Origin: a virus
Strand: one strand, 5' to 3'
DNA: 64,000 bases
IMG/VR virus record: IMGVR_UViG_3300035704_000002
Location: 1-64,000 of that record
This document shows, piece after piece, positions 51,071 to 60,755 of this stretch. The position numbers and the translations under genes are program-made. Each line of letters starts with the position of its first letter. Within the stretch, counting starts at the first letter, position 1. The notes under the pieces are model-generated. The model was given only the letters and a program-made list of their open reading frames with translations, ran no database searches and was not told where the DNA came from.

Positions 51071-51192
51071 GCCGACCAGCGTAGGACGCGCCGGGGGCGC
51101 TCGTGCGCACCTGGGCGCGGCGTACCCGACCAGCCGCAACGCCCCGTTACCCTCGCGCTCGTCCGTGATCGTGGGAGTGGGAGGTGCCCGGC

Positions 51193-52800
51193 GTGGCGCA
51201 GCGGCGGTTCCTACCCGCGCTCCGGCGCATCTTCGCGCCCGCCCTGGAAAGCAAAGGTCTGCCCGAGCAGGTGCGCGCCAGTTCCCAGGCGTACCTCGTG
51301 CCTGGCGTCCCGTACTCGCAGAACTGGTCCACTCAGCGTGCCGTGCGCGAGGCGTACGAGCCGAATCCGCTGGTGTATCGGGCGATCGAGGTACTGGCCA
51401 CCAACGCGATCAGCCAGCGCATCGTGTTGCGCCAGGGTGACCCCGAGGAAGGCCCGATCATCGACACCGCGCACGACCCGACGCGGCTGCTCTACGTGTT
51501 CAACCGCCGCGCCAACCCGTGGGAGACCGCCAGGGTGTTCCGTCACCGGTTGGTGGCGCAGTGGCTACTGTCCTCACGCGGGCTGTTCGTGGAGATCATC
51601 CGCACACGCGGCGGCGGCATCGCCATGGTCAACCTGCTGGACCCCGACCTGGTCGACATGATCCCCGACCGGACCGACCCGATGCACGCCTTCCGGGTAC
51701 GCACCCCGAACTCCTCCACCGGATTCGACTACCTACCCCGCTTCGATCCGGCCAAGACCGCGCGCGAACAGCCCGCCTCCATCCTGTGGATGCGCAACCC
51801 GCACCCGACTGTGGCGTGGCAGGGCATGAGCCCGGTGCAGGCCGCCGGCCTGCCGATCGACCTGGATCGTTACGCCCGGCTCTACAACCGCCGATTTCTA
51901 CAGAACGACGGCCGGCCCGGCGGCCTGCTCTCGATCAAGGGTGTCGTGGCGCCGGCCACCATGGAGCTGATCCAGAGCCAGTTCATGGGCGGCCCCGACT
52001 CGGCCGGCCGTACCACCGTGATCAACGCCGACTCGGTGTCCTACGCGGACACCAGCGGCTCGCCCCGTGACACGCTCTGGGGCGACACGATGGACCGCAA
52101 CCGGCGCGAGATCTGCACCGCGTTCGGGGTGCCCGAGAGCGTGCTGGGCGACGCGTCCGGCCGCACCTTCTCCAACGCCGACGCCGAATACGCGATGTTC
52201 TGGGAACACCGCATGCTGCCGCTGGTGCGGGCGCTAGATGACCAACTCGACATCCTCACCGAGATCATGGGGCCGGATGTCTATTTGCGTCACGATGTGT
52301 CCAAGGTGTGGGTGCTGGGTCGCTACCAGCGCGAGCACGAGGACCGTCTGGCCGCCGACCAGCAGGCCGGCTACCGCACCATCGATGAGGTGCGGGTGGC
52401 CAAGGGCGAGAAGCCCCAGAACGTGCCCGCCACCCGCGTGCTGTGGATACCGCCGGGCAAGCTCGCCGTGGCCGACGCGAGTCGTCCGCACGACGCCGAG
52501 GAAGCCGCCGCCGCGCCGATCGGCGGCCCGGTCAACGCCGGCTCGGCCGGCTCCGGCGCCGCTCAGGCCGGCGTCAACCACCTGTCCGGCTCGGGCTACA
52601 GCGCCGGAGACACCGACTATCTGGGCAGCGGCAAGGGTGGCGGCGGCAACTCCGACCTGCGTTTGCTGTCCGGCTCCGGCGGCGGCCGGGCCGGTGGCGG
52701 CTTCGAGAACATGGGCGAGATCGACCCGGACGAACTGGAGGGTAAGCAGAGCGGCCCGCGACGCTGGGGCTCCCCCAGTGGAGCCCGCATCGCCGGTTAA
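51193..52800 (+). CDS. Phage portal protein (HK97-like)
   Basis: NPLVYRAI, ANPWET, GMSPVQAA, FLQNDGRPGGLL, ICTAFGVPESVLG, TFSNA, TIDEVR; GGAGG RBS. Confidence 0.92.
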   Translation: MAQRRFLPALRRIFAPALESKGLPEQVRASSQAYLVPGVPYSQNWSTQRAVREAYEPNPLVYRAIEVLATNAISQRIVLRQGDPEEGPIIDTAHDPTRLLYVFNRRANPWETARVFRHRLVAQWLLSSRGLFVEIIRTRGGGIAMVNLLDPDLVDMIPDRTDPMHAFRVRTPNSSTGFDYLPRFDPAKTAREQPASILWMRNPHPTVAWQGMSPVQAAGLPIDLDRYARLYNRRFLQNDGRPGGLLSIKGVVAPATMELIQSQFMGGPDSAGRTTVINADSVSYADTSGSPRDTLWGDTMDRNRREICTAFGVPESVLGDASGRTFSNADAEYAMFWEHRMLPLVRALDDQLDILTEIMGPDVYLRHDVSKVWVLGRYQREHEDRLAADQQAGYRTIDEVRVAKGEKPQNVPATRVLWIPPGKLAVADASRPHDAEEAAAAPIGGPVNAGSAGSGAAQAGVNHLSGSGYSAGDTDYLGSGKGGGGNSDLRLLSGSGGGRAGGGFENMGEIDPDELEGKQSGPRRWGSPSGARIAG

Positions 52801-55261
52801 CGGCCAAGACCTGCCCGCCATCGCGCCCGCCGACATCACCACCACCGAAGCCCATCCCGCCCCGGCGCCCGGACCCGATCGGGAAGCGCTGGTGCTGGCC
52901 AGCCGGGCACGCATCGACGCCGCCCAGGCCACGATGACCGGCGCCCTGGATGGCTACCTGTCCCGGCTGGACGGCGTGGTCACCTCGCGCGTCAGGGGGC
53001 CGCGTGTGCGCAAGGGCACGCGCTGGTGGGGCGAGAACGCCAAGAGCCTGCACACGCCGATCTCGCTGGGCGGCGTGACCGGCCTGGAGACCAAGGCAGT
53101 GGACACCGGGTACGCGCTGCCGGACAAGCTGGTCGCCGAGGCGGCCGACGTGGCCCGCCCGATCGCGCAGCGAATCGCGCACGACGCCGCGCTGGCCACC
53201 GCCCGGTCGCTGAGTGTGCGTGTGCCCGGCGATCCGGCCGATATCTCGTTCGCGGTGGACCATGTCGCCCTGGAGCAGGCCGTGGATCGGGCCGTGAGCC
53301 GCGTCCAGGCGGTCGCCGACCACCACGCCACCCTGATCCGTGACGCCATCGGCCACGCCGACGCGCACGCCGAAACACTGGACGAACTGCTGGGCCAGGT
53401 GCAGGCCGCGCATGCCCAGGGCGCCGCCTGGGTGCGCATGGCCGGCCGCGCGGTGACCAACGGCCTGATCCAGGATGTGTCCACCGGGCAGGCGCGCGCC
53501 CTGGGCGTCACCCACGCGCAGTGGCTCTGCGTTGCGGCGGACACCAGGGTTTGGGCGCCAGGCGCGATCAATGTCGCTCAGCGATGGAGTGATGAGGGAC
53601 TACTTCGGATCGCGACAGCGCGGACGGTAGGCACCAGAAATATCCTGTCCGTCACCCCGGATCACCCGCTCCTGACTCAACGCGGTTGGATTTCGGCGCG
53701 CGAGATTCACCCAGGAGATCGACTCGTTCGCAGCGCCTTCGCCCAGAGGGAATCGGGGGGTAACCCACACATAGAGAATCTTCCAGCCAAGATCAGCGAG
53801 ACGTTCCGCGCGGCGGCGCAACTTCGCCCGACCGAGCGGATTATGCGCGTTGCGCCATACTTCGATAGCGACAGGCGCGGCAGCTATGTCGATGTTGTAC
53901 CGATCGACAGCGAGCTGCGGGACTGTCTGCAATCCGCGTTCCATGAGCCACGCGCTCAACTGCTGCTCACCCTCTCCGACCTTGACTTGGAGGGCTTGCT
54001 TGAGCTTCGCTCGTTCCGCCACCACGGCATCAGGTTGGCGTCGTCCAACGTTGAGTCCCGCCAGAAAAACGTTGCGCCCAGCAGTAATGTCGACAGCCTC
54101 ATGAGCGATACGGTTGAGACCAGCGGCCGAGTGGCTCCGCCAGGTGATGCCACGCTCCGTTACGATGAGCTTGATCATTTTGAGGGAAGTGTCGAATTCG
54201 ACCGCCAGTGCTCGCGCGGCACGCCCCGCGACGTATCCGGCGACGATGCCTTCCTTGTCCAGTACGCGACGGTTCCAGCGCAGCGCTTGCGCGGCCCTGG
54301 ACTGCTCGGTAGCTTCGGGGTGAGTCGCGAAGCGGATACGAACGGCTTGCTCGGGGGATCGCAGGACACCAATGTCGCGCAGCCTTCTCCTGATGGTTTC
54401 CGCGCTGACTCCCTCCAGAGTTTCCGCGATCTCGCGGGGCGATTCTCCGATTTGGTAACGCTGGACCAGGTTGTCGATGTCGAGTTCGATCCGACCCCTT
54501 GTCACGTGTACGACCTCCAGACGGAAACTGGCTGGTTCGTAGCCGATGGTTACGTCGTACACAATAGTCGCCGTGACGAACACGTGCGCCCCACCCACGT
54601 GCGGGCCGACGGCCAGGTGCGCGAACTGGGCGCGCCGTTCCGAGTGGGCACGGTCGACCTCGCCTATCCGTGCGATCCGGCCGGACTACCCGACACCTGG
54701 CCCGAGGTGGCCGGCTGCCGATGCGGCCTCCTGTTCCGCGCGCCGGCCGCCGACCACGCCCGCGCCCTGGGCACCCTGTCGACCACCCGGCCCAGCCGCG
54801 CTGGGCCGGGTGCGTTGGCCCTGCTGGCGGCCGTGGCGGCTGGGGGCATCGCGGTACACGAGGTGGCCGCGCCGTTGGGGGTGGCCGGTGGCCCGGACGG
54901 CGCGCCGCCACCATCCCGGCAAGTCGTGACCCACCAGTCGGTGGTCGGCTACCGCGCGCTGGAGCAGGAGCTGGCGGTGACGCCGGGGCAGTGGCTGCGC
55001 CTGCCCGGCCCGATCGTGCTGGGGTTGAGTGCGCCGAGCCTGTTCGCCGAGGGCGCGCCGGTGCTCTCGGTGCTGATTCCGGCTGGCGTCACGCTGACCG
55101 TGGCCGGCGGCCTGGCGGTACTGGCGGCCGGCACGGCGCTGGAAGTGCTCTCCAACGGTCCGACCGGCGTACAGGTGCAGGTCGCGGCACCGCAGGCGTC
55201 CTACTCGAAACCTACTCGAAACCTTGCCGCCACGGACGCGATCACCGCGCCGGCCACGTGA
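52778..55261 (+). CDS. Head morphogenesis protein (Mu gpF / SPP1 gp7-like) containing an intein; start uncertain
   Basis: Spliced junction QWL|SRRDEHVRPTH..ADGQVR...PF.VG...YPCDP...CRC. Confidence 0.82.
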   Translation: MEPASPVNGQDLPAIAPADITTTEAHPAPAPGPDREALVLASRARIDAAQATMTGALDGYLSRLDGVVTSRVRGPRVRKGTRWWGENAKSLHTPISLGGVTGLETKAVDTGYALPDKLVAEAADVARPIAQRIAHDAALATARSLSVRVPGDPADISFAVDHVALEQAVDRAVSRVQAVADHHATLIRDAIGHADAHAETLDELLGQVQAAHAQGAAWVRMAGRAVTNGLIQDVSTGQARALGVTHAQWLCVAADTRVWAPGAINVAQRWSDEGLLRIATARTVGTRNILSVTPDHPLLTQRGWISAREIHPGDRLVRSAFAQRESGGNPHIENLPAKISETFRAAAQLRPTERIMRVAPYFDSDRRGSYVDVVPIDSELRDCLQSAFHEPRAQLLLTLSDLDLEGLLELRSFRHHGIRLASSNVESRQKNVAPSSNVDSLMSDTVETSGRVAPPGDATLRYDELDHFEGSVEFDRQCSRGTPRDVSGDDAFLVQYATVPAQRLRGPGLLGSFGVSREADTNGLLGGSQDTNVAQPSPDGFRADSLQSFRDLAGRFSDLVTLDQVVDVEFDPTPCHVYDLQTETGWFVADGYVVHNSRRDEHVRPTHVRADGQVRELGAPFRVGTVDLAYPCDPAGLPDTWPEVAGCRCGLLFRAPAADHARALGTLSTTRPSRAGPGALALLAAVAAGGIAVHEVAAPLGVAGGPDGAPPPSRQVVTHQSVVGYRALEQELAVTPGQWLRLPGPIVLGLSAPSLFAEGAPVLSVLIPAGVTLTVAGGLAVLAAGTALEVLSNGPTGVQVQVAAPQASYSKPTRNLAATDAITAPAT
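53528..54565 (+). mobile_element. Intein 1 (346 aa) in the MuF-like protein
   Basis: Cys1 CVAADTRV, block B VTPDHPLLTQRGW, blocks F/G HVYDLQTETGWFVADGYVVHN then Ser; lower GC. Confidence 0.9.
53600..54505 (-). CDS. HTH-HTH plus Vsr/DUF559-like endonuclease encoded antisense inside intein 1
   Basis: GGAGG-8 nt-GTG; two HTH repeats; E.QL..WL..RG....PQ..VDRYNIDIA...VAIEV...H...L.DLGWKILYVW. Confidence 0.82.
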   Translation of the reverse strand: MTRGRIELDIDNLVQRYQIGESPREIAETLEGVSAETIRRRLRDIGVLRSPEQAVRIRFATHPEATEQSRAAQALRWNRRVLDKEGIVAGYVAGRAARALAVEFDTSLKMIKLIVTERGITWRSHSAAGLNRIAHEAVDITAGRNVFLAGLNVGRRQPDAVVAERAKLKQALQVKVGEGEQQLSAWLMERGLQTVPQLAVDRYNIDIAAAPVAIEVWRNAHNPLGRAKLRRRAERLADLGWKILYVWVTPRFPLGEGAANESISWVNLARRNPTALSQERVIRGDGQDISGAYRPRCRDPK

Positions 55262-55565
55262 ACTGACCGGCCTCGTTGCCGTGCACGACCTTCTGCACCC
55301 AGTGGGTATCGGTGCCATCCAGCCACACCTGTCCGTTGACGGGCGTATCCGGGTCGATGGTGCGCGAGCCGTGCGGCAGCCCCCACAGCCGCACGATCAG
55401 CATCGGGAAGACCTGGCCCGGCGCCACGGCGTTGCCTCGGTGGATCAGTTCGCCGGCACCGTTGCGCGCCCGGCGCTGGTGCTCGATCTGGCGTATATCC
55501 TCGACGGTGAGTTGGTAGAGCACGAGTCGGGGCGGATTGGGCAGCGAAGCGTCCTGGGTTCCCAT
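55242..55565 (-). CDS. hypothetical phage protein
   Basis: GN....G...PMLIVR...VNGQVWLDG.D..W...WP.R; TACCGT 6 nt before ATG. Confidence 0.65.
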   Translation of the reverse strand: MGTQDASLPNPPRLVLYQLTVEDIRQIEHQRRARNGAGELIHRGNAVAPGQVFPMLIVRLWGLPHGSRTIDPDTPVNGQVWLDGTDTHWVQKVVHGNEAGQFTWPAR

Positions 55566-55671
55566 GTCCGCACGGTAGTCGGACACCTCGATCGTGTCGG
55601 CATGCCGGCCGCGCCGTCGCGCTGGGCTAGATTCACCGCGACGATCACAACTATTACCCAGGAGTAACACG

Positions 55672-56955
55672 GTGGGAGCTGCACCCGAGGTCGCCGACCC
55701 GTGGTCATCCCTGCGTCACACGCTCGAACGCACCAACACCTGGTACACGATGGCGTCGGGACTGGTCAGCGGTGCGCGCAGCCTCTACGCGCACTGGCGG
55801 GAACACAGCACCTTCACCGTGTCGGTGTCCAGCGCCGATCCCGGCTACCAGGACGTGCACGACTGGCTCGTGAACGCCGTACCGCCGGCCCGGCGACGGG
55901 CGCTGATGGTGTGCTCCGGCCAGCCCTATGCCGACTCCTCCGACGCCGTGCCCGCGTCGGACTCGCCGCCGACCGCCAGCGCACCGGTGCGCCTGGCCTA
56001 CGACTCCGGCCACGAACAGACCGTGCTGGTGTCCGGCCGGGCGGTGCGGGTGGCGTTGGCGCGTGGCGAGGACGACAGCGCCGGCTCGGGCGGCATGCGA
56101 CGTGTCCCGCCGGACCGGATCGTGTTCCGATGCCCCAGCCAGGCGGCCCAGCAGGCCGTCATCGACCACCTGATCACGATCATCGGTGACCGTTCGAACC
56201 GGCGCCGGACACCCCAACTGCACGTGCTCTCCTCGTGGGGCGGCTGGACGCGCCGTTCCGACATCCCGCCGCGCAGCCTGGAATCGGTTGTGCTGCGTGC
56301 CGGCCAGATGGAGGAGTTGATCTCTGATCTGGGCGAGTTCCTGAGCGCCGAGACCGAGTACATCCGCAGGGGTCAGCCCTGGCACTACGGCTGCCTGCTG
56401 CAAGGTCCGCCCGGCACCGGCAAGACCAGCATCGTCAAGGCGCTGGCCAGCCACTTCGGCCTGGATCTGTGGCACGTGCCGCTCGGCGACCTCATCAGTG
56501 ACACCAGCCTGTCCACCCTGCTGGCGCAGGTGCATCCGCGTTCCATGCTGCTGCTGGAGGACGTGGACATCTACGCCGCCGCGACCAGCCGCAAGGCCGA
56601 GGCGGAACAGGTGTCGCTCTCGGGTCTGCTCAACGCGCTGGACGGGGTGATCACGCCACACGGCCTGATCATCGTACTGACCAGTAACGAGCCGGCATCC
56701 CTCGATCCCGCGCTGGTCCGGCCCGGCCGCATCGACCGGGTGGAGAACGTCGACCACCTCACCGACGAACAGGCACACCGGCTGTTCGTCACCTTCTACC
56801 AGCAGCCTGCGCGGCTGACCTGGACCATCGCGCCCGAGACCGCCAGCGCCGCCGTCATCGGCGTGTTCAAACACCACCTGCGCGACCCGGACGCGGCCGA
56901 GCGGGCGCTGTGCCGCGCACTGGCACACCAGCCTCCGCTCCCGGTACCGGTGTAG
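55672..56955 (+). CDS. AAA+ ATPase (BCS1-like)
   Basis: GPPGTGKTS, LLLEDVD, SLSGLLNALDG, LDPALVRPGRID; CAGGAG RBS. Confidence 0.88.
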   Translation: MGAAPEVADPWSSLRHTLERTNTWYTMASGLVSGARSLYAHWREHSTFTVSVSSADPGYQDVHDWLVNAVPPARRRALMVCSGQPYADSSDAVPASDSPPTASAPVRLAYDSGHEQTVLVSGRAVRVALARGEDDSAGSGGMRRVPPDRIVFRCPSQAAQQAVIDHLITIIGDRSNRRRTPQLHVLSSWGGWTRRSDIPPRSLESVVLRAGQMEELISDLGEFLSAETEYIRRGQPWHYGCLLQGPPGTGKTSIVKALASHFGLDLWHVPLGDLISDTSLSTLLAQVHPRSMLLLEDVDIYAAATSRKAEAEQVSLSGLLNALDGVITPHGLIIVLTSNEPASLDPALVRPGRIDRVENVDHLTDEQAHRLFVTFYQQPARLTWTIAPETASAAVIGVFKHHLRDPDAAERALCRALAHQPPLPVPV

Positions 56956-57011
56956 CCCCGGATCACCCAGTCGGCGAGCCTGACCGAGAAACCCCGCCGC
57001 ACGCTGCCACG

Positions 57012-60000
57012 ATGTCGCGCGTGGCGAACCGAGACCCCGAAGCAGACGGCCCGCGCACCTCGGGCATGGTGGCGCTGATGCCCACGGCGGCCGATGCCCA
57101 ACGTCTCGCCGTGGACGGCGGCGAAGACCCCGACCAGTTGCACCTCACGCTGGCCTACCTCGGTGACAACGCCACCGGCCTGCCGCCGGAAACCCAGCAG
57201 GCACTCCATCAGGTGATGGGGCACCTGGCAGCCGAGACACCGCCGGTGGACGCCCGCGCCGCCGGGCATCTGCTGCTGAATCCCGACGGTGGCCCGGACG
57301 GTGACCGCACGCCCGTGGCGGCCTACCTGATGTCCGACTCCGACGCGCTCACCCCGCTGCACGAGGCGGCGAAGGCGGCGGCCGGCGCGGCCGACCCGGC
57401 CCTGACCCAGTTCTCGCCGTTCATCCCGCACGTGTCCGGCGCCTACGACCGCGACGCCGGAGCGCTGGGCTACGCCGGACCGGTCAGCTTCGACCGGATG
57501 CGGGTAGCGATCGGCGACGGGCACACCGACTACCCGCTGACCGGCCCGGCGTCCGGGGGCACCGATCCGGATGCCGACGGCGACATTGATGACGGCACCG
57601 GCGTGAACACCGACGACGACCCCACCGTGGGCGATGACGGCGCCAGGTCCGACAAGCCGGAGGGCAAGTCCGTGATCAGCCTGGCCGAGTTGGTGGAGCT
57701 GGCCGAACTGACCAACCTGGTGAGCGAAACCAAGGGCGACGCCCCCGACGGCGGCAACTCCGACGCGCCGCCCCACTCGATGCCCGACGGCAGCTACCAG
57801 ATCAACCATCCCGGCCAGCTCAAGCAGGCCATCAACGCGCTGACCGCCTACCAGGTCGCCAAGGGCAAGCGCGGGGCGCTGCGCAAGCATGTGATGAAGC
57901 ACGCCGCGCGATTGCACGCGCAGAACATGGTGCCACAGTCCATTCAGGACGAAGGCGACGACGACCCCGACGCCAAGAAGGACGCCGCGCCGGAGCCGGT
58001 CGAGACGAAGAACGTCGTGGCCACCCAGGCCGGCGTGGCCAGGTACGGCAAGCCGATCGGGACCGTGCTGGGCGCGCCGCGTGATGCCGCCGCCGCGCAG
58101 GCGCAGAAGGACACCGGCGCGGTCACCGCCTACCAGGATCTGCTCGCCGGTAACACGCGGAGCGTGGAACCGCTGAACACGATGGACCCCAGCAGCCTCG
58201 AAGCACTCACGCGCGTCGCCTACAGCTACAAATCCTCCGATCCGAAGGTCGTGGCACTGCGCGTGCAACTGGCCAACGAGCTGGCCAAACGCGGCCTGAA
58301 GGTCACCAGTTTCGGCGCCCTGGGCGGTGGCGGACCGACCAAGCCCGCCAGGGGCAAGGCGCCGGTCAAGCCGAAGGCGCCCGCGAAGCCGGCCCCGACT
58401 CCAGCGCAGGTTGCCGGCGCGCGCGGCGTGGCCGCGCCGCACGTCCAGGCCAAGGGTGATCTGGACGTCACGGAGGTGGAGTACAAGACGAAGTACACCG
58501 CTGATGACCGGCGCACCATGGCCAAGAAGGGGCAGGCGCTGCCGGATGGTTGCCTCTCTGGTGACACGTTGGTGGCAACTCGCAATGGCTCCGTCCGCAT
58601 TGACGCCCTCCCGTCTGAGTGCGAATTGCTAACTGATCACGGGTGGACGCAAGCTACTGTCTGCGGATTTGGAGTACAGAAACTGCGAGCTGTTGAACTG
58701 TTTGACGGTGTGCGAACCGAGATCGTCCACGCTACGTCAGGTCACAGATGGCTGATTGATGGTGGCGACTGGAGACTCACAGACGATCTGATCGTTGGCG
58801 ACCGCATTCCCCATGTTGATGTATCGAGCAATGATTTCAATGCCGACCTCGTCAACACGGCCCATCAGCGTATTGCACGTAAGGCAAAGCAGACCCCGCA
58901 CCATTCCAGTGCGATGGTCGTGATCAACCTGGAAGCCGGTCCATGTACGACCGGTACGAGTGTTGGCACGATTGATCTTCGGGATGCGATGACAGATAGC
59001 ACACAGGCCGCGCTGACTGGCAAGAAGTGCGTCGAACTCCGCTTGTCCAATGCTGTACTTGCGCCGCAGCATTCCATCTCGGCGACGCATCCAGCGCTCA
59101 TCGGCAACATCCACCCGTTCAGCGCTGGTGCGTGCTCTGTTTTGGCAGCAGAAACGGCAGTCGGTTCGCCGACGCTGATTGCGGATATAGAAATCGGTAT
59201 GCGGTCGTTCGGCGCCGCAGGTGCGGCAGGTGACAAAACCGACATAGCCGACTGGTACACCCTTGGCGTAAACGGACACGGTCATCCCACGAATGCTACC
59301 CGTTCGTGGGAGGTTGTGGGTATCAAAGCCACGCGCCGCATCGAGGAGGTTTTTTGCGCACTGGTTCCAGACTTGCACCGGTTTGTACTAGCCAGTGGCG
59401 TTTTGACCGGAAATAGTTATCCGATCATGGACCGGTCCGACCTGGACTCCGCGATCCGACTACGCGGACGGCACAGCGAATACTCCGCCGATACGGTCGT
59501 CAAGCACATCGTCAAACGCGCCAAGGCGATCGACGCCACCGACATGCTGCCCGACGGCATGGCCGCCGGGGTGCAGGAGAAGCAACTGTCCTGGGACGGC
59601 GCGCCGGACGCGTTCACGGCCGGCGTGCTGCTCGGCCTGTCCGGCCTGGACACCGACGAAGCGCTGGAGCTGAAGGCCGGCCCGCCGGGACACACCTTCG
59701 CCTCGCCCGACCCGAACGCCGCACGGCTGCGCCGGTACTGGGTGTTCGGCAAGGGACGCGCAAAGATCAACTGGGGTGTTCCGGGCGACTTCGACCGCTG
59801 CGTCGCGGAACTCACCAAGTACGTCGGCGACCGCGCCAAGGGCTTGTGCAACATCTACCACCGCTCCGCGCTCGGCGTCGCGCCCGGCCAGGAGGACAAG
59901 CCCGGCCACGCCGTCGCCAAGGCCGTGGGTGCCATGGTGGGTGCCAAGAAGTCCGAGGACGACGAGACCGAAACCAAGGCGCTGACCGCGTTGTGGGTAC

Positions 60001-60755
60001 GCGACCCGGCCGCCGTGGACGGGTGGCGTGCCTACGCGCCCGCGTGGCCACTGGATGACGACCTGATCGCGGAAATGAAAGCGTTGCGTCCCAACAAGCC
60101 CAGCGGTGGCTACGTCGGGGCCGACGACGAGGAGGACAGCCCCGACGGCAACGCGCCCGACGATACGAACAACACCGACTCGGGCACCGACGACGACGTA
60201 CTGTCCGCGCTGGACAACTATGCCGCCATGGCACCACAGATCAGCCCCGAAGACGCCTACATGCAGGCCATCGGCGACCAGATCCCCTGGCAACTGGCCG
60301 CCACCGGCGATCTGGTCAACCCCGACTCGCCCGGTGGTGAAGTGCCTGTGCTACAACGCGAGGAAGCGCGGTTCGGTGAGGCCGGACCGTCCGACGCGGC
60401 CGTGGACGACCTGTCCGGCACCGACGAGGTACCCGACGCCGACGACGCCGGGGCGGATGACGACCCCACCTTCCCCGATGACGGTGATCTGAGCTTCGAC
60501 CCGGACGATACGAACGAGACCGATGACGGCACGGATGGCCCGGATGACGGCGCCGGGGACACCGGCGACGGTTCGAACGAGAGCGACACCGGCGCCGCCA
60601 TTCCGGAGGTGGCCGAACTGCTGGCCGACCTGATGGCCGAACAGGACACGGTGGCCGCGCCGACGGATGACGACGATGCTGGCGAGCCGGAGGAAGACAG
60701 CACGGCGATCACTACCGCCCCGAAGCGCCAGGCCGCCGCCAGTGTTACCGCGTAA
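57012..60755 (+). CDS. Large modular head-associated protein: 2H phosphoesterase, two PDGSY(P/Q)I modules, intein, acidic tail
   Basis: LHLTLAYLG and FIPHVS 2H motifs; MPDGSYQI; ALPDG|SYPI; RLRRYW...KINWGVPGDFDRC; D/E-rich C-terminus. Confidence 0.78.
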   Translation: MSRVANRDPEADGPRTSGMVALMPTAADAQRLAVDGGEDPDQLHLTLAYLGDNATGLPPETQQALHQVMGHLAAETPPVDARAAGHLLLNPDGGPDGDRTPVAAYLMSDSDALTPLHEAAKAAAGAADPALTQFSPFIPHVSGAYDRDAGALGYAGPVSFDRMRVAIGDGHTDYPLTGPASGGTDPDADGDIDDGTGVNTDDDPTVGDDGARSDKPEGKSVISLAELVELAELTNLVSETKGDAPDGGNSDAPPHSMPDGSYQINHPGQLKQAINALTAYQVAKGKRGALRKHVMKHAARLHAQNMVPQSIQDEGDDDPDAKKDAAPEPVETKNVVATQAGVARYGKPIGTVLGAPRDAAAAQAQKDTGAVTAYQDLLAGNTRSVEPLNTMDPSSLEALTRVAYSYKSSDPKVVALRVQLANELAKRGLKVTSFGALGGGGPTKPARGKAPVKPKAPAKPAPTPAQVAGARGVAAPHVQAKGDLDVTEVEYKTKYTADDRRTMAKKGQALPDGCLSGDTLVATRNGSVRIDALPSECELLTDHGWTQATVCGFGVQKLRAVELFDGVRTEIVHATSGHRWLIDGGDWRLTDDLIVGDRIPHVDVSSNDFNADLVNTAHQRIARKAKQTPHHSSAMVVINLEAGPCTTGTSVGTIDLRDAMTDSTQAALTGKKCVELRLSNAVLAPQHSISATHPALIGNIHPFSAGACSVLAAETAVGSPTLIADIEIGMRSFGAAGAAGDKTDIADWYTLGVNGHGHPTNATRSWEVVGIKATRRIEEVFCALVPDLHRFVLASGVLTGNSYPIMDRSDLDSAIRLRGRHSEYSADTVVKHIVKRAKAIDATDMLPDGMAAGVQEKQLSWDGAPDAFTAGVLLGLSGLDTDEALELKAGPPGHTFASPDPNAARLRRYWVFGKGRAKINWGVPGDFDRCVAELTKYVGDRAKGLCNIYHRSALGVAPGQEDKPGHAVAKAVGAMVGAKKSEDDETETKALTALWVRDPAAVDGWRAYAPAWPLDDDLIAEMKALRPNKPSGGYVGADDEEDSPDGNAPDDTNNTDSGTDDDVLSALDNYAAMAPQISPEDAYMQAIGDQIPWQLAATGDLVNPDSPGGEVPVLQREEARFGEAGPSDAAVDDLSGTDEVPDADDAGADDDPTFPDDGDLSFDPDDTNETDDGTDGPDDGAGDTGDGSNESDTGAAIPEVAELLADLMAEQDTVAAPTDDDDAGEPEEDSTAITTAPKRQAAASVTA
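58551..59414 (+). mobile_element. Intein 2 (288 aa)
   Basis: Cys1 CLSGDTLV, block B HATSGHRW, blocks F/G EEVFCALVPDLHRFVLASGVLTGN then Ser; lower GC. Confidence 0.88.
58737..59285 (-). CDS. Endonuclease VII-like (His-Me finger) nuclease encoded antisense inside intein 2
   Basis: CRTC...CRFC; LRRKYSI...EF..LL..Q.GLCAIC...VDHDHRTGMVRGLLCLTCN. Confidence 0.9.
   Translation of the reverse strand: MTVSVYAKGVPVGYVGFVTCRTCGAERPHTDFYIRNQRRRTDCRFCCQNRARTSAERVDVADERWMRRRDGMLRRKYSIGQAEFDALLASQRGLCAICHRIPKINRANTRTGRTWTGFQVDHDHRTGMVRGLLCLTCNTLMGRVDEVGIEIIARYINMGNAVANDQIVCESPVATINQPSVT

Follow-up and report, generated by a model that had tools for sequence, protein, structure and literature searches.

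The window analysed here, a 64,000-nucleotide (nt) stretch of viral DNA (positions 1 to 64,000 of IMG/VR virus record IMGVR_UViG_3300035704_000002), carries an intein in a MuF-like head-morphogenesis gene, and the other strand of the intein DNA holds an open reading frame (ORF) for a putative nuclease. As judged by the sequence and its relatives, the element is likely a mobile intein whose homing endonuclease has a gene of its own, which runs antisense and fits almost exactly within the intein DNA. The evidence also leans, if only slightly, towards a fuller picture: a phage-borne family of at least 1451 protein clusters in which nuclease and splicing domain form an obligate antisense gene pair. 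In such a pair, intein block F (His-Val-Tyr-Asp/Asn-Leu-Gln) would serve also as start codon and ribosome-binding site and block B (Thr-Pro-Asn-His-Pro) also as the last β-strand of the nuclease (Arg-Val-Ile-Arg-Gly), and the gene would match the intein borders almost exactly. The features of the element, with positions in the window, are as follows.

53528..54565, plus strand: intein of 346 residues, assigned from Cys1, block B, block F, His345-Asn346 and Ser+1
53654..53665, plus strand: intein block B, Thr43-Pro44-Asp45-His46 (ACC CCG GAT CAC), whose complement encodes nuclease Val281-Ile282-Arg283-Gly284
54503..54520, plus strand: intein block F, His326-Val-Tyr-Asp329-Leu330-Gln331 (cac gtg tac gac ctc cag), bearing the antisense start and Shine-Dalgarno (SD)-like motif
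53600..54505, minus strand: antisense nuclease gene of 301 codons plus TAG, codon-aligned with the sense frame
54514..54518, minus strand: SD-like GGAGG, 8 nt before GTG, the complement of gaC CTC Cag
54503..54505, minus strand: GTG, the start codon, opposite CAC of His326
54371..54478, minus strand: first helix-turn-helix (HTH) unit, nuclease residues ~10-45, from AlphaFold2 helices 10-18, 23-29 and 35-45, the 2lvs profile and a weak HTH_23 match
54155..54256, minus strand: second HTH unit, residues ~84-117, from AlphaFold2 helices 84-92, 97-103 and 108-117 and HTH_58 at residues 86-125
53636..53974, minus strand: Vsr/DUF559-like nuclease core, residues ~178-290, from invariant columns, AlphaFold2, Foldseek, 3hrl and MTES_1575 at residues 180-249
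53603..53635, minus strand: final 11 codons (residues 291-301), a probable run-on as far as the following stop

The two frames are codon-aligned, sense codon positions 1, 2 and 3 lying opposite antisense positions 3, 2 and 1, so that the numbers of facing intein and nuclease residues sum to 327 (r + n = 327). The start codon sits just 60 nt inside the downstream border of the intein, and the nuclease stop TAG (cta at 53600-53602) is the complement of intein Leu25. On the minus strand the complement of block F reads CTGGAGGTCGTACAC-GTG. An earlier note on this DNA had claimed that the codons for His-Val-Tyr-Asp-Leu-Gln supply GGAGG 8 nt ahead of GTG 54505, that the product has 301 residues with its stop about 25 codons into the intein, and that its tail is antisense to block B; all three can be read directly in the sequence, TAG standing opposite Leu25 and the tail ERVIRGDGQDI being the complement of NILSVTPDHPL. 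Given the codon alignment, block B Thr-Pro-Asp-His faces Gly284-Arg283-Ile282-Val281, with Thr43 (ACC) opposite Gly284, Pro44 (CCG) opposite Arg283, Asp45 (GAT) opposite Ile282 and His46 (CAC) opposite Val281.

On the sense strand, 53528-54565 is, by its sequence features, a class-1-type intein in the MuF-like gene, with splicing predicted. The N-terminal nucleophile Cys1 (TGC, 53528-53530) is invariant across 52 aligned sense inteins. Block B has the Thr-x-x-His pattern (T43-P-D-H46), in which H46 is invariant and T43 nearly so among the 52 sequences. The C-terminal end (blocks F and G) reads HVYDLQTETGWFVADGYVVHN followed by S, the terminal His-Asn, with Asn346 at 54563-54565 (AAT), preceding the +1 nucleophile Ser (AGT, 54566-54568); among 69 non-redundant loci (see below) the +1 residue is C in 58, S in 6, T in 4 and unassigned in 1. 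The NCBIfam model TIGR01443 (intein_Cterm) matched with 15.7 bits at a cut-off of 15.6, and Pfam PF14890 (Intein_splicing) with 34.1 bits, just short of its cut-off of 35.8. In an AlphaFold2 model based on the 52 sense sequences, residues 1-70 and 311-348 had values of 88-97 for pLDDT (the predicted score in the local distance difference test), and residues 129-286 were mostly below 50. Foldseek ranked intein splicing domains top for this model (best, Mtu RecA 2in8, E 2.8e-3, prob 1.00), and the HINT fold was recognised on these matches, none of them at E ≤ 0.001. The G+C content (GC) of the intein is 0.59-0.65 versus 0.71-0.78 in its flanks.

Relatives of the nuclease were sought at several levels. 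In a tblastn search with the nuclease 63 phage records were matched, from phages of Salmonella (38), Pseudomonas (14) and Gordonia (7), with Mycobacterium, Shigella, Jerseyvirus jersey and Escherichia contributing 1 each. The protein is 32.5-33.7% identical, over 94-99% of the query, to antisense ORFs in MuF-like genes of the Gordonia phages Fosterous, Vivi2, Affeca and Angelicage. A blastn search of the region against phage records gave no match, the similarity being confined to the protein level, and a word-index protein search with the nuclease found nothing. A HMMER scan of 1.84 billion representative proteins, which carry no genomic context, returned 1451 clusters at E ≤ 0.001 and 716 at E ≤ 1e-10. 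For comparison, 104 loci were assembled: the window, four phage records, 80 loci kept from 234 relatives found in an IMG/VR scan, and 19 loci in bacterial genomes from a scan of one genome per prokaryote species, the latter labelled Chloroflexi/Anaerolineae, Actinobacteria, Bacteroidales, Firmicutes, Saccharibacteria, Fibrobacter and Gammaproteobacteria. The gene opposite the match in the four phage records contains intein blocks and is annotated as MuF-like, head-morphogenesis or capsid-maturation. The nuclease is antisense, codon-aligned and inside an open sense frame with intein motifs in all 104 loci, which come from phages and prophages and span a GC of 0.34-0.71; the sense frame is open from nuclease start to stop in 103, and the remaining locus has no assignable start. 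No free-standing nuclease copy was seen among the 104 loci. Counts of starts and SD-like motifs leave out seven loci cut at the 5' end by a contig end, one cut at the 3' end (L095) and three without an assignable start (L034, L098 and L102); the 93 complete ORFs were reduced to 69 non-redundant loci at <60% identity.

The intein-nuclease module occupies more than one site within MuF-like genes among the loci compared. The commonest is between N and C of a H-P-N-C-R-C-like motif; in the window and in Mycobacterium phage Sejanus the module lies after W-(V/L) and before a R-P-(S/T)-H motif, and further sites follow ...I-N or ...A-N. Most deposited records annotate the sense gene alone, and in a few, such as Salmonella phage PK2 (L004) and other Jerseyvirus, the antisense ORF is annotated as a hypothetical protein within the head-morphogenesis gene.

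An open antisense frame is in itself weak evidence at 70% GC: a codon-aligned antisense frame is often open there, the codon usage of this genome predicts only ~2.3 stops per 300 codons, and the window holds other long antisense ORFs. GC by codon position likewise fails to separate the frames (sense 0.68/0.47/0.70), and some apparent sense-frame motifs exist in the insert. These facts are what would be expected if the antisense ORF were a chance open frame of GC-rich DNA and its homologues a shadow of the conserved sense intein. As openness in the window is uninformative, the case rests on homology and on the pattern of substitution, and both make the chance reading extremely improbable. The frame is also open in loci of 34-50% GC, despite 3-20 expected stops per locus; over the 69 loci, codon usage of the exteins predicts 286 nuclease-frame and 281 sense-frame stops, and none was seen in the complete ORFs. 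The sense motifs of the insert are the complements of the catalytic strands of the nuclease, the nuclease homologues number 1451 protein clusters at the threshold given above, and it is the antisense protein that is modelled with confidence, as an HTH and Vsr-like protein, where the sense insert is not.

Selection was compared on moderately diverged pairs of loci (55-86% protein identity; nine pairs, two of them identical, leaving eight independent). In the nuclease core, differences at nuclease codon positions 1/2/3 number 643/407/865, the substitutions thus gathering at third positions, and the nuclease frame has a ratio of non-synonymous to synonymous rates (dN/dS) of 0.33 and the sense frame one of 0.81; the result lies in the direction of this contrast rather than in the exact values. 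In sliding windows over the eight pairs, nuclease residues 46-255 (sense 72-281) gave 0.20-0.44 in the nuclease frame and 0.63-1.42 in the sense frame. The order is reversed for nuclease residues 256-300 (sense 27-71, including block B), at 0.33-0.34 for the sense and 0.60-0.64 for the nuclease frame, and in the first 45 nuclease residues both frames are at ~0.5. This contrast indicates that the insert is read for the nuclease and the N-terminal part of the HINT domain mainly for the intein, with some constraint on both where they overlap. The sequence comparisons thus support purifying selection on the antisense frame across the family.

The earlier note had described two HTH repeats and a Vsr-like domain, and on this Pfam, a PDB profile search, AlphaFold2 and Foldseek agree. 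Pfam matches were to MTES_1575, a restriction endonuclease family (E 2.2e-5), to HTH_58 (E 1.2e-4) and, weakly, to HTH_23. The PDB profile search matched the double HTH protein 2lvs (E 3.9e-9, profile positions 10-104) and the endonuclease-like protein 3hrl (E 4.8e-4). The AlphaFold2 model of the nuclease, based on 63 family sequences, had a mean pLDDT of 92.7 and comprises two three-helix units (10-45 and 84-117), helical linkers, and then a core with helix 178-189, strands 195-200, 203-209 and 212-217, helix 227-238, strand 242-247, helix 256-271 and strand 279-283. The best Foldseek matches were the catalytic domain of I-Bth0305I (3r3p, E 0.028, prob 0.99) and Vsr (1cw0, E 0.040, prob 0.99), and the catalytic domain was accordingly assigned a Vsr-type restriction-endonuclease-like fold. 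E180, N204, D206 and E215 are invariant among the 63 sequences, and no His is; in view of these residues the protein is named Vsr/DUF559-like here and membership of the EDxHD group is left aside. As judged by length, 47 of the 69 non-redundant loci encode a nuclease of at least 270 residues with two HTH units, as in the window, and 22 a shorter one.

The start of the nuclease gene is the complement of the His codon directly before block-F V-Y in 59 of the 69 loci, and lies 1-5 codons earlier in the other 10. That a start codon faces His is a tautology, as CAT and CAC are the complements of ATG and GTG; conservation of its position is not. The start is ATG in 54 loci and GTG in 15, ATG (CAT in the sense strand) being favoured even in GC-rich phages. 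An SD-like match of at least 4 nt precedes the start in 64/69 loci, versus 137/1070 other antisense-of-His sites in the same sense frames, and one of at least 5 nt in 43/69 versus 36/1070. In the 59 loci with the common spacing, the profile is G at -13 (71%), G at -12 (81%), A at -11 (100%), G at -10 (97%) and G at -9 (79%).

The control that we trust most is internal, namely the neighbouring synonymous sites. Sense third positions from -84 to +8 are biased only at -12 (Leu, G 47/58) and -9 (Asp/Asn, G 46/58), the pair of synonymous sites that forms GAGG, and at 0 (the start, A 44 and G 14); no bias is seen at Tyr -6 (33:25), Thr -18 (20/14/12/12), Tyr -33 (29:28), Asn -42 (28:21), His -57 (26:22) or Asn -60 (27:27). 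The block-F Leu codon (Leu330 in the window) is CTC in 54 of 67 loci, CTT in 9, CTG in 2, TTG in 1 and TTA in 1; CTC or CTT is thus used in 63/67, with 32.5 expected (P 2e-16, a value that ignores relatedness). The suggestion that synonymous codons were selected for antisense translation is supported by the choice at Leu330, by the biased sites at -12, -9 and 0, and by the opposite His and Asn preferences of blocks F and B described below.

If the nuclease is real but is translated from elsewhere, GGAGG would be coding or incidental. The open frame extends to 54685 and includes GTGs at 54598, 54583 and 54562 that might serve, as might a non-canonical codon, and an in-frame ATG or GTG lies upstream in 29/69 loci. 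None of the three GTGs in the window has GGAGG or an SD-like motif, and homology to the Gordonia proteins begins at nuclease residues 4-7, counted from 54505. The stretch from the upstream stop to the conserved start lacks any in-frame ATG or GTG in 40/69 loci, and in 31/69 the frame is closed by a stop no more than 12 codons upstream. Together with the position kept relative to block F in 59/69 loci and the preference for CAT in GC-rich phages, this leaves another start very unlikely, and GTG 54505 is retained as the predicted start.

Loci with a shifted start include L022, L051, L056, L065, L068, L076, L080, L086 and L090, and in the examples inspected the position adjoining V-Y holds Phe, Tyr or Trp. 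In a control set of ordinary actinobacterial inteins (33 loci fetched, 30 scanned), 21 block-F-like matches were found in 17 loci, some of them possibly false, and His occurred in the three residues before the motif in 0/21. The shifted loci suggest that what keeps the block-F His is the start codon of the other strand, or simply a need for an aromatic residue there; the His conserved ahead of block F may be present for the antisense start rather than for splicing. The three loci without an assignable start, L034, L098 and L102, hold both nuclease ORF and intein and lack a start codon at the usual position. L034 has Ser in place of the expected His and L102 a different N-terminal arrangement; the three may be decaying copies or have other starts.

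At the other end of the gene, the nuclease consensus ends in ...P...GQYRVIRG.G.., the complement of ...TPNHP.LT. Among 68 non-redundant loci the block B Thr codon is ACC in 55/65, giving Gly in the nuclease; Asn is AAT in 53 and AAC in 12, giving Ile rather than Val; and His is CAC in 57 and CAT in 11, giving Val rather than Met. At block F these preferences are the opposite, with CAT:CAC of 54:15 for His and AAT in 5 and AAC in 36 for Asn (Fisher P for block F versus block B, ~1e-13 for His and 8e-13 for Asn). Block G, which the ORF does not overlap, has CAT:CAC of 18:19. The window matches the consensus at all these codons save for its GTG start. Strand 279-283 (ERVIR), the complement of block B (T43-H46), has a pLDDT of ~90, and residues 291-301 are modelled as disordered, with pLDDT of 52 and 41 in the last two blocks. 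After block B the tail runs on for 9 to 77 codons among the loci, and the tails are unalike. Given this variation in length and sequence, the ERVIR strand is probably part of the nuclease fold and residues 291-301 are probably run-on.

The position of the nuclease stop was examined in the 60 of 69 loci in which Cys1 could be assigned, the other 9 being left out. It falls at intein residue 3 or beyond in 40 (residue 25 in the window); in 16 it lies opposite the Leu codon of intein residue 2, and in 4 the ORF continues past the upstream splice junction and stops 4 or 19 codons inside the N-extein. True dual coding over splicing residues, as put forward in the earlier note, is supported by the comparison for block B; what overlays the coding sequence at block F is a translation signal and not a second reading frame.

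In the proposed mechanism, the sense strand would give a precursor of the MuF-like head protein, from which the HINT domain (about residues 1-70 and somewhat beyond, and 310-346) would splice out along with a poorly conserved, low-confidence spacer. An antisense transcript would be translated from GTG 54505 by way of the GGAGG opposite Asp329-Leu330-Gln331, and the predicted product would be the 301-residue protein, in which two HTH DNA-binding units are joined to a Vsr/DUF559-like nuclease. If it acts as other homing endonucleases do, this enzyme would cut intein-less head genes of co-infecting relatives, and repair would then copy intein and nuclease gene together. Transcription, initiation, cleavage, homing and splicing activity are all steps that we infer.

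The gene might instead be intact and no longer engaged in homing, either as a recently fixed, idle passenger nearing decay or in another role such as the exclusion of competitor phages. Several VSR-like cases do look vertically inherited according to the main text of a preprint on actinophage inteins (bioRxiv 10.1101/2025.01.02.630785), and the promoter scan of 53300-55400 came back empty. Against this stand the intact ORF, SD-like motif and start, the presence in the window of all four family-invariant residues, and purifying selection, which acts family-wide and is not measurable for this single genome. An idle or repurposed gene is, on balance, unlikely.

A number of points weigh against the homing interpretation. 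It is supported by comparison with 103 related loci and not by experiment. A scan of 53300-55400 for sigma-70-like promoters came back empty, and upstream of the SD-like motif the family profile contains no conserved synonymous site that might mark one as far as -84, which is already in the C-extein. The sequencing runs listed as holding the sequence are two of DNA and none of RNA. With regard to the nuclease, all Pfam matches were under the curated cut-offs, the Foldseek E-values of 0.03-0.04 are modest, and the invariant E, N, D and E show no obvious fit to the EDxHD signature of I-Bth0305I. With regard to the statistics, the loci are related by descent, so that the P values overstate independence; the background for the Leu330 expectation includes the overlapped region; and standard dN/dS is biased in overlapping frames, with few pairs available. 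The comparison with ordinary inteins, which the earlier note had proposed for codon choice, yielded only five Asp-Leu cases (Leu CTG 3, CTA 1, CTC 1), too few to decide.

Antisense VSR-like endonuclease genes in full inteins of actinophage minor capsid (MuF-like) proteins are described in a 2025 preprint by Gosselin, Arsenault and Gogarten (bioRxiv 10.1101/2025.01.02.630785). According to its main text, the minor capsid inteins had non-canonical endonucleases only, the predicted nuclease was matched to 1CW0 and 3R3P, and earlier anti-sense LAGLIDADG genes in inteins are cited. The window element therefore belongs to that kind: host gene type, strand arrangement and nuclease type (a helical N-terminal part and a Vsr-like core) are the same, and the Gordonia phages matched here are actinobacteriophages, the group surveyed in the preprint. 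The window ORF has its start on block F, takes in block B and reaches its stop at codon 25 of the intein; the main text of the preprint is without the words 'ribosom-', 'start codon' and 'promoter'. The preprint, in its main text, is confined to actinophages, whereas the module was found here also in phages of Salmonella, Shigella, Escherichia and Pseudomonas and in several bacterial phyla. The placing of start, SD-like motif and last strand on splicing motifs, and the breadth of the family beyond actinophages, are additions that we could not find in print. Neither overlap with splicing blocks nor such inteins in phages of Proteobacteria was found in the literature searched, which for the preprint means the main text, and its supplements may bear on the overlap. 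The available text of PMC8966425, PMC10914365 and PMC6669764 holds nothing on antisense nuclease genes in inteins.

With canonical class 1 inteins such as Mtu RecA and PI-SceI, the window intein shares Cys1, the block B TxxH, the F/G ending His-Asn, the +1 nucleophile and the HINT fold. Canonical inteins have an in-frame endonuclease domain, whereas in the window that region is poorly conserved in the sense frame (dN/dS ~1) with a low-confidence model, and the enzyme would be a separate polypeptide from the other strand. Anti-sense LAGLIDADG endonuclease genes have reportedly been noted in inteins of Synechocystis DnaX and others (Gorbalenya in 1998 and Gogarten in 2002 are said to have described them). 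They agree with the window in having the endonuclease opposite the intein with the sense frame open, and differ in the nuclease fold. Vsr-like (EDxHD) homing endonucleases such as I-Bth0305I were reportedly the subject of work by Taylor et al. in 2011. The likeness to this type lies in a Vsr-like fold in a mobile element of phage genes and in an N-terminal DNA-binding part, 3r3p being the best Foldseek match. Dassa et al. 2009 (PMC2677866) describe Vsr-like endonuclease genes as free-standing, both between the halves of split inteins and within group I introns. Genes of the I-Bth0305I type lie free at such places or occur on their own, and are depicted as coding regions in their own right, placed between the two gene halves; the window gene differs in being antisense inside a contiguous intein. 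The EDxHD signature, described in PMC2677866, consists of conserved E, D-x-H and D; it is not evident in the window nuclease, as compared by the family-invariant residues, and the nearest solved structure by sequence is 3hrl and the nearest Pfam family MTES_1575.

If read correctly, the element offers a clear natural example in which opposite strands of the same codons specify two folded proteins and a translation start, an arrangement kept over wide divergence (34-71% GC and phages of several phyla). It would suggest, in a form open to testing, how an intein can acquire an endonuclease gene without fusion, and would show which synonymous sites pay for this. It also means that genome annotation of one strand misses a widespread nuclease family.

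The phage record comprises 128,202 bases with direct terminal repeats, of which the 64-kb window is a part. GC in the window is ~0.70-0.77, with two dips to ~0.60 and ~0.55, and the intein studied here is the first of these. The host gene and its upstream neighbour are as follows.

51184..52800: portal gene directly upstream of the MuF-like gene, matching PHROG portal families (E 5.9e-43 and 1e-39)
52238..55261, plus strand: long sense ORF, the frame carrying N-extein, intein and C-extein
52892..53527, plus strand: N-extein of the MuF-like head-morphogenesis gene, for which PHROG gave weak matches to portal-MuF families, in their MuF-like C-terminal part
54566..55261, plus strand: C-extein of the MuF-like gene including the stop codon, matching PHROG head-morphogenesis families

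Three candidates exist for the start codon of the MuF-like gene, GTG 52778, GTG 52892 and ATG 52934. The C-extein matched the head-morphogenesis families phrog_3517 (E 1e-9) and phrog_2468 (E 4.9e-7) and the portal-MuF family phrog_859 (E 1.2e-13). A Pfam search of the exteins taken separately returned no family, and a terminator scan of 53300-55400 found none.

A second intein (CLSGDT... to ...VLTGN|S; GC ~0.55) lies in the ORF at 56910..60755 (plus strand) and also has a codon-aligned antisense ORF, of 213 residues at 58737-59378 (minus strand), which matched the Pfam family Endonuclease_7 with a score over the cut-off (62 bits, E 5.2e-17). The first GTG of this ORF stands opposite the His codon of the block-F stretch P-D-L-H, with an in-frame TAG 4 codons upstream, and no SD-like motif was seen ahead of it. 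Endonuclease VII-like genes in inteins are reported in the main text of the preprint only in another frame of the same strand (bioRxiv 10.1101/2025.01.02.630785). Between the two intein-bearing genes, an ORF of 453 residues (55594-56955, plus strand) contains a Walker A-like GPPGTGKT stretch.

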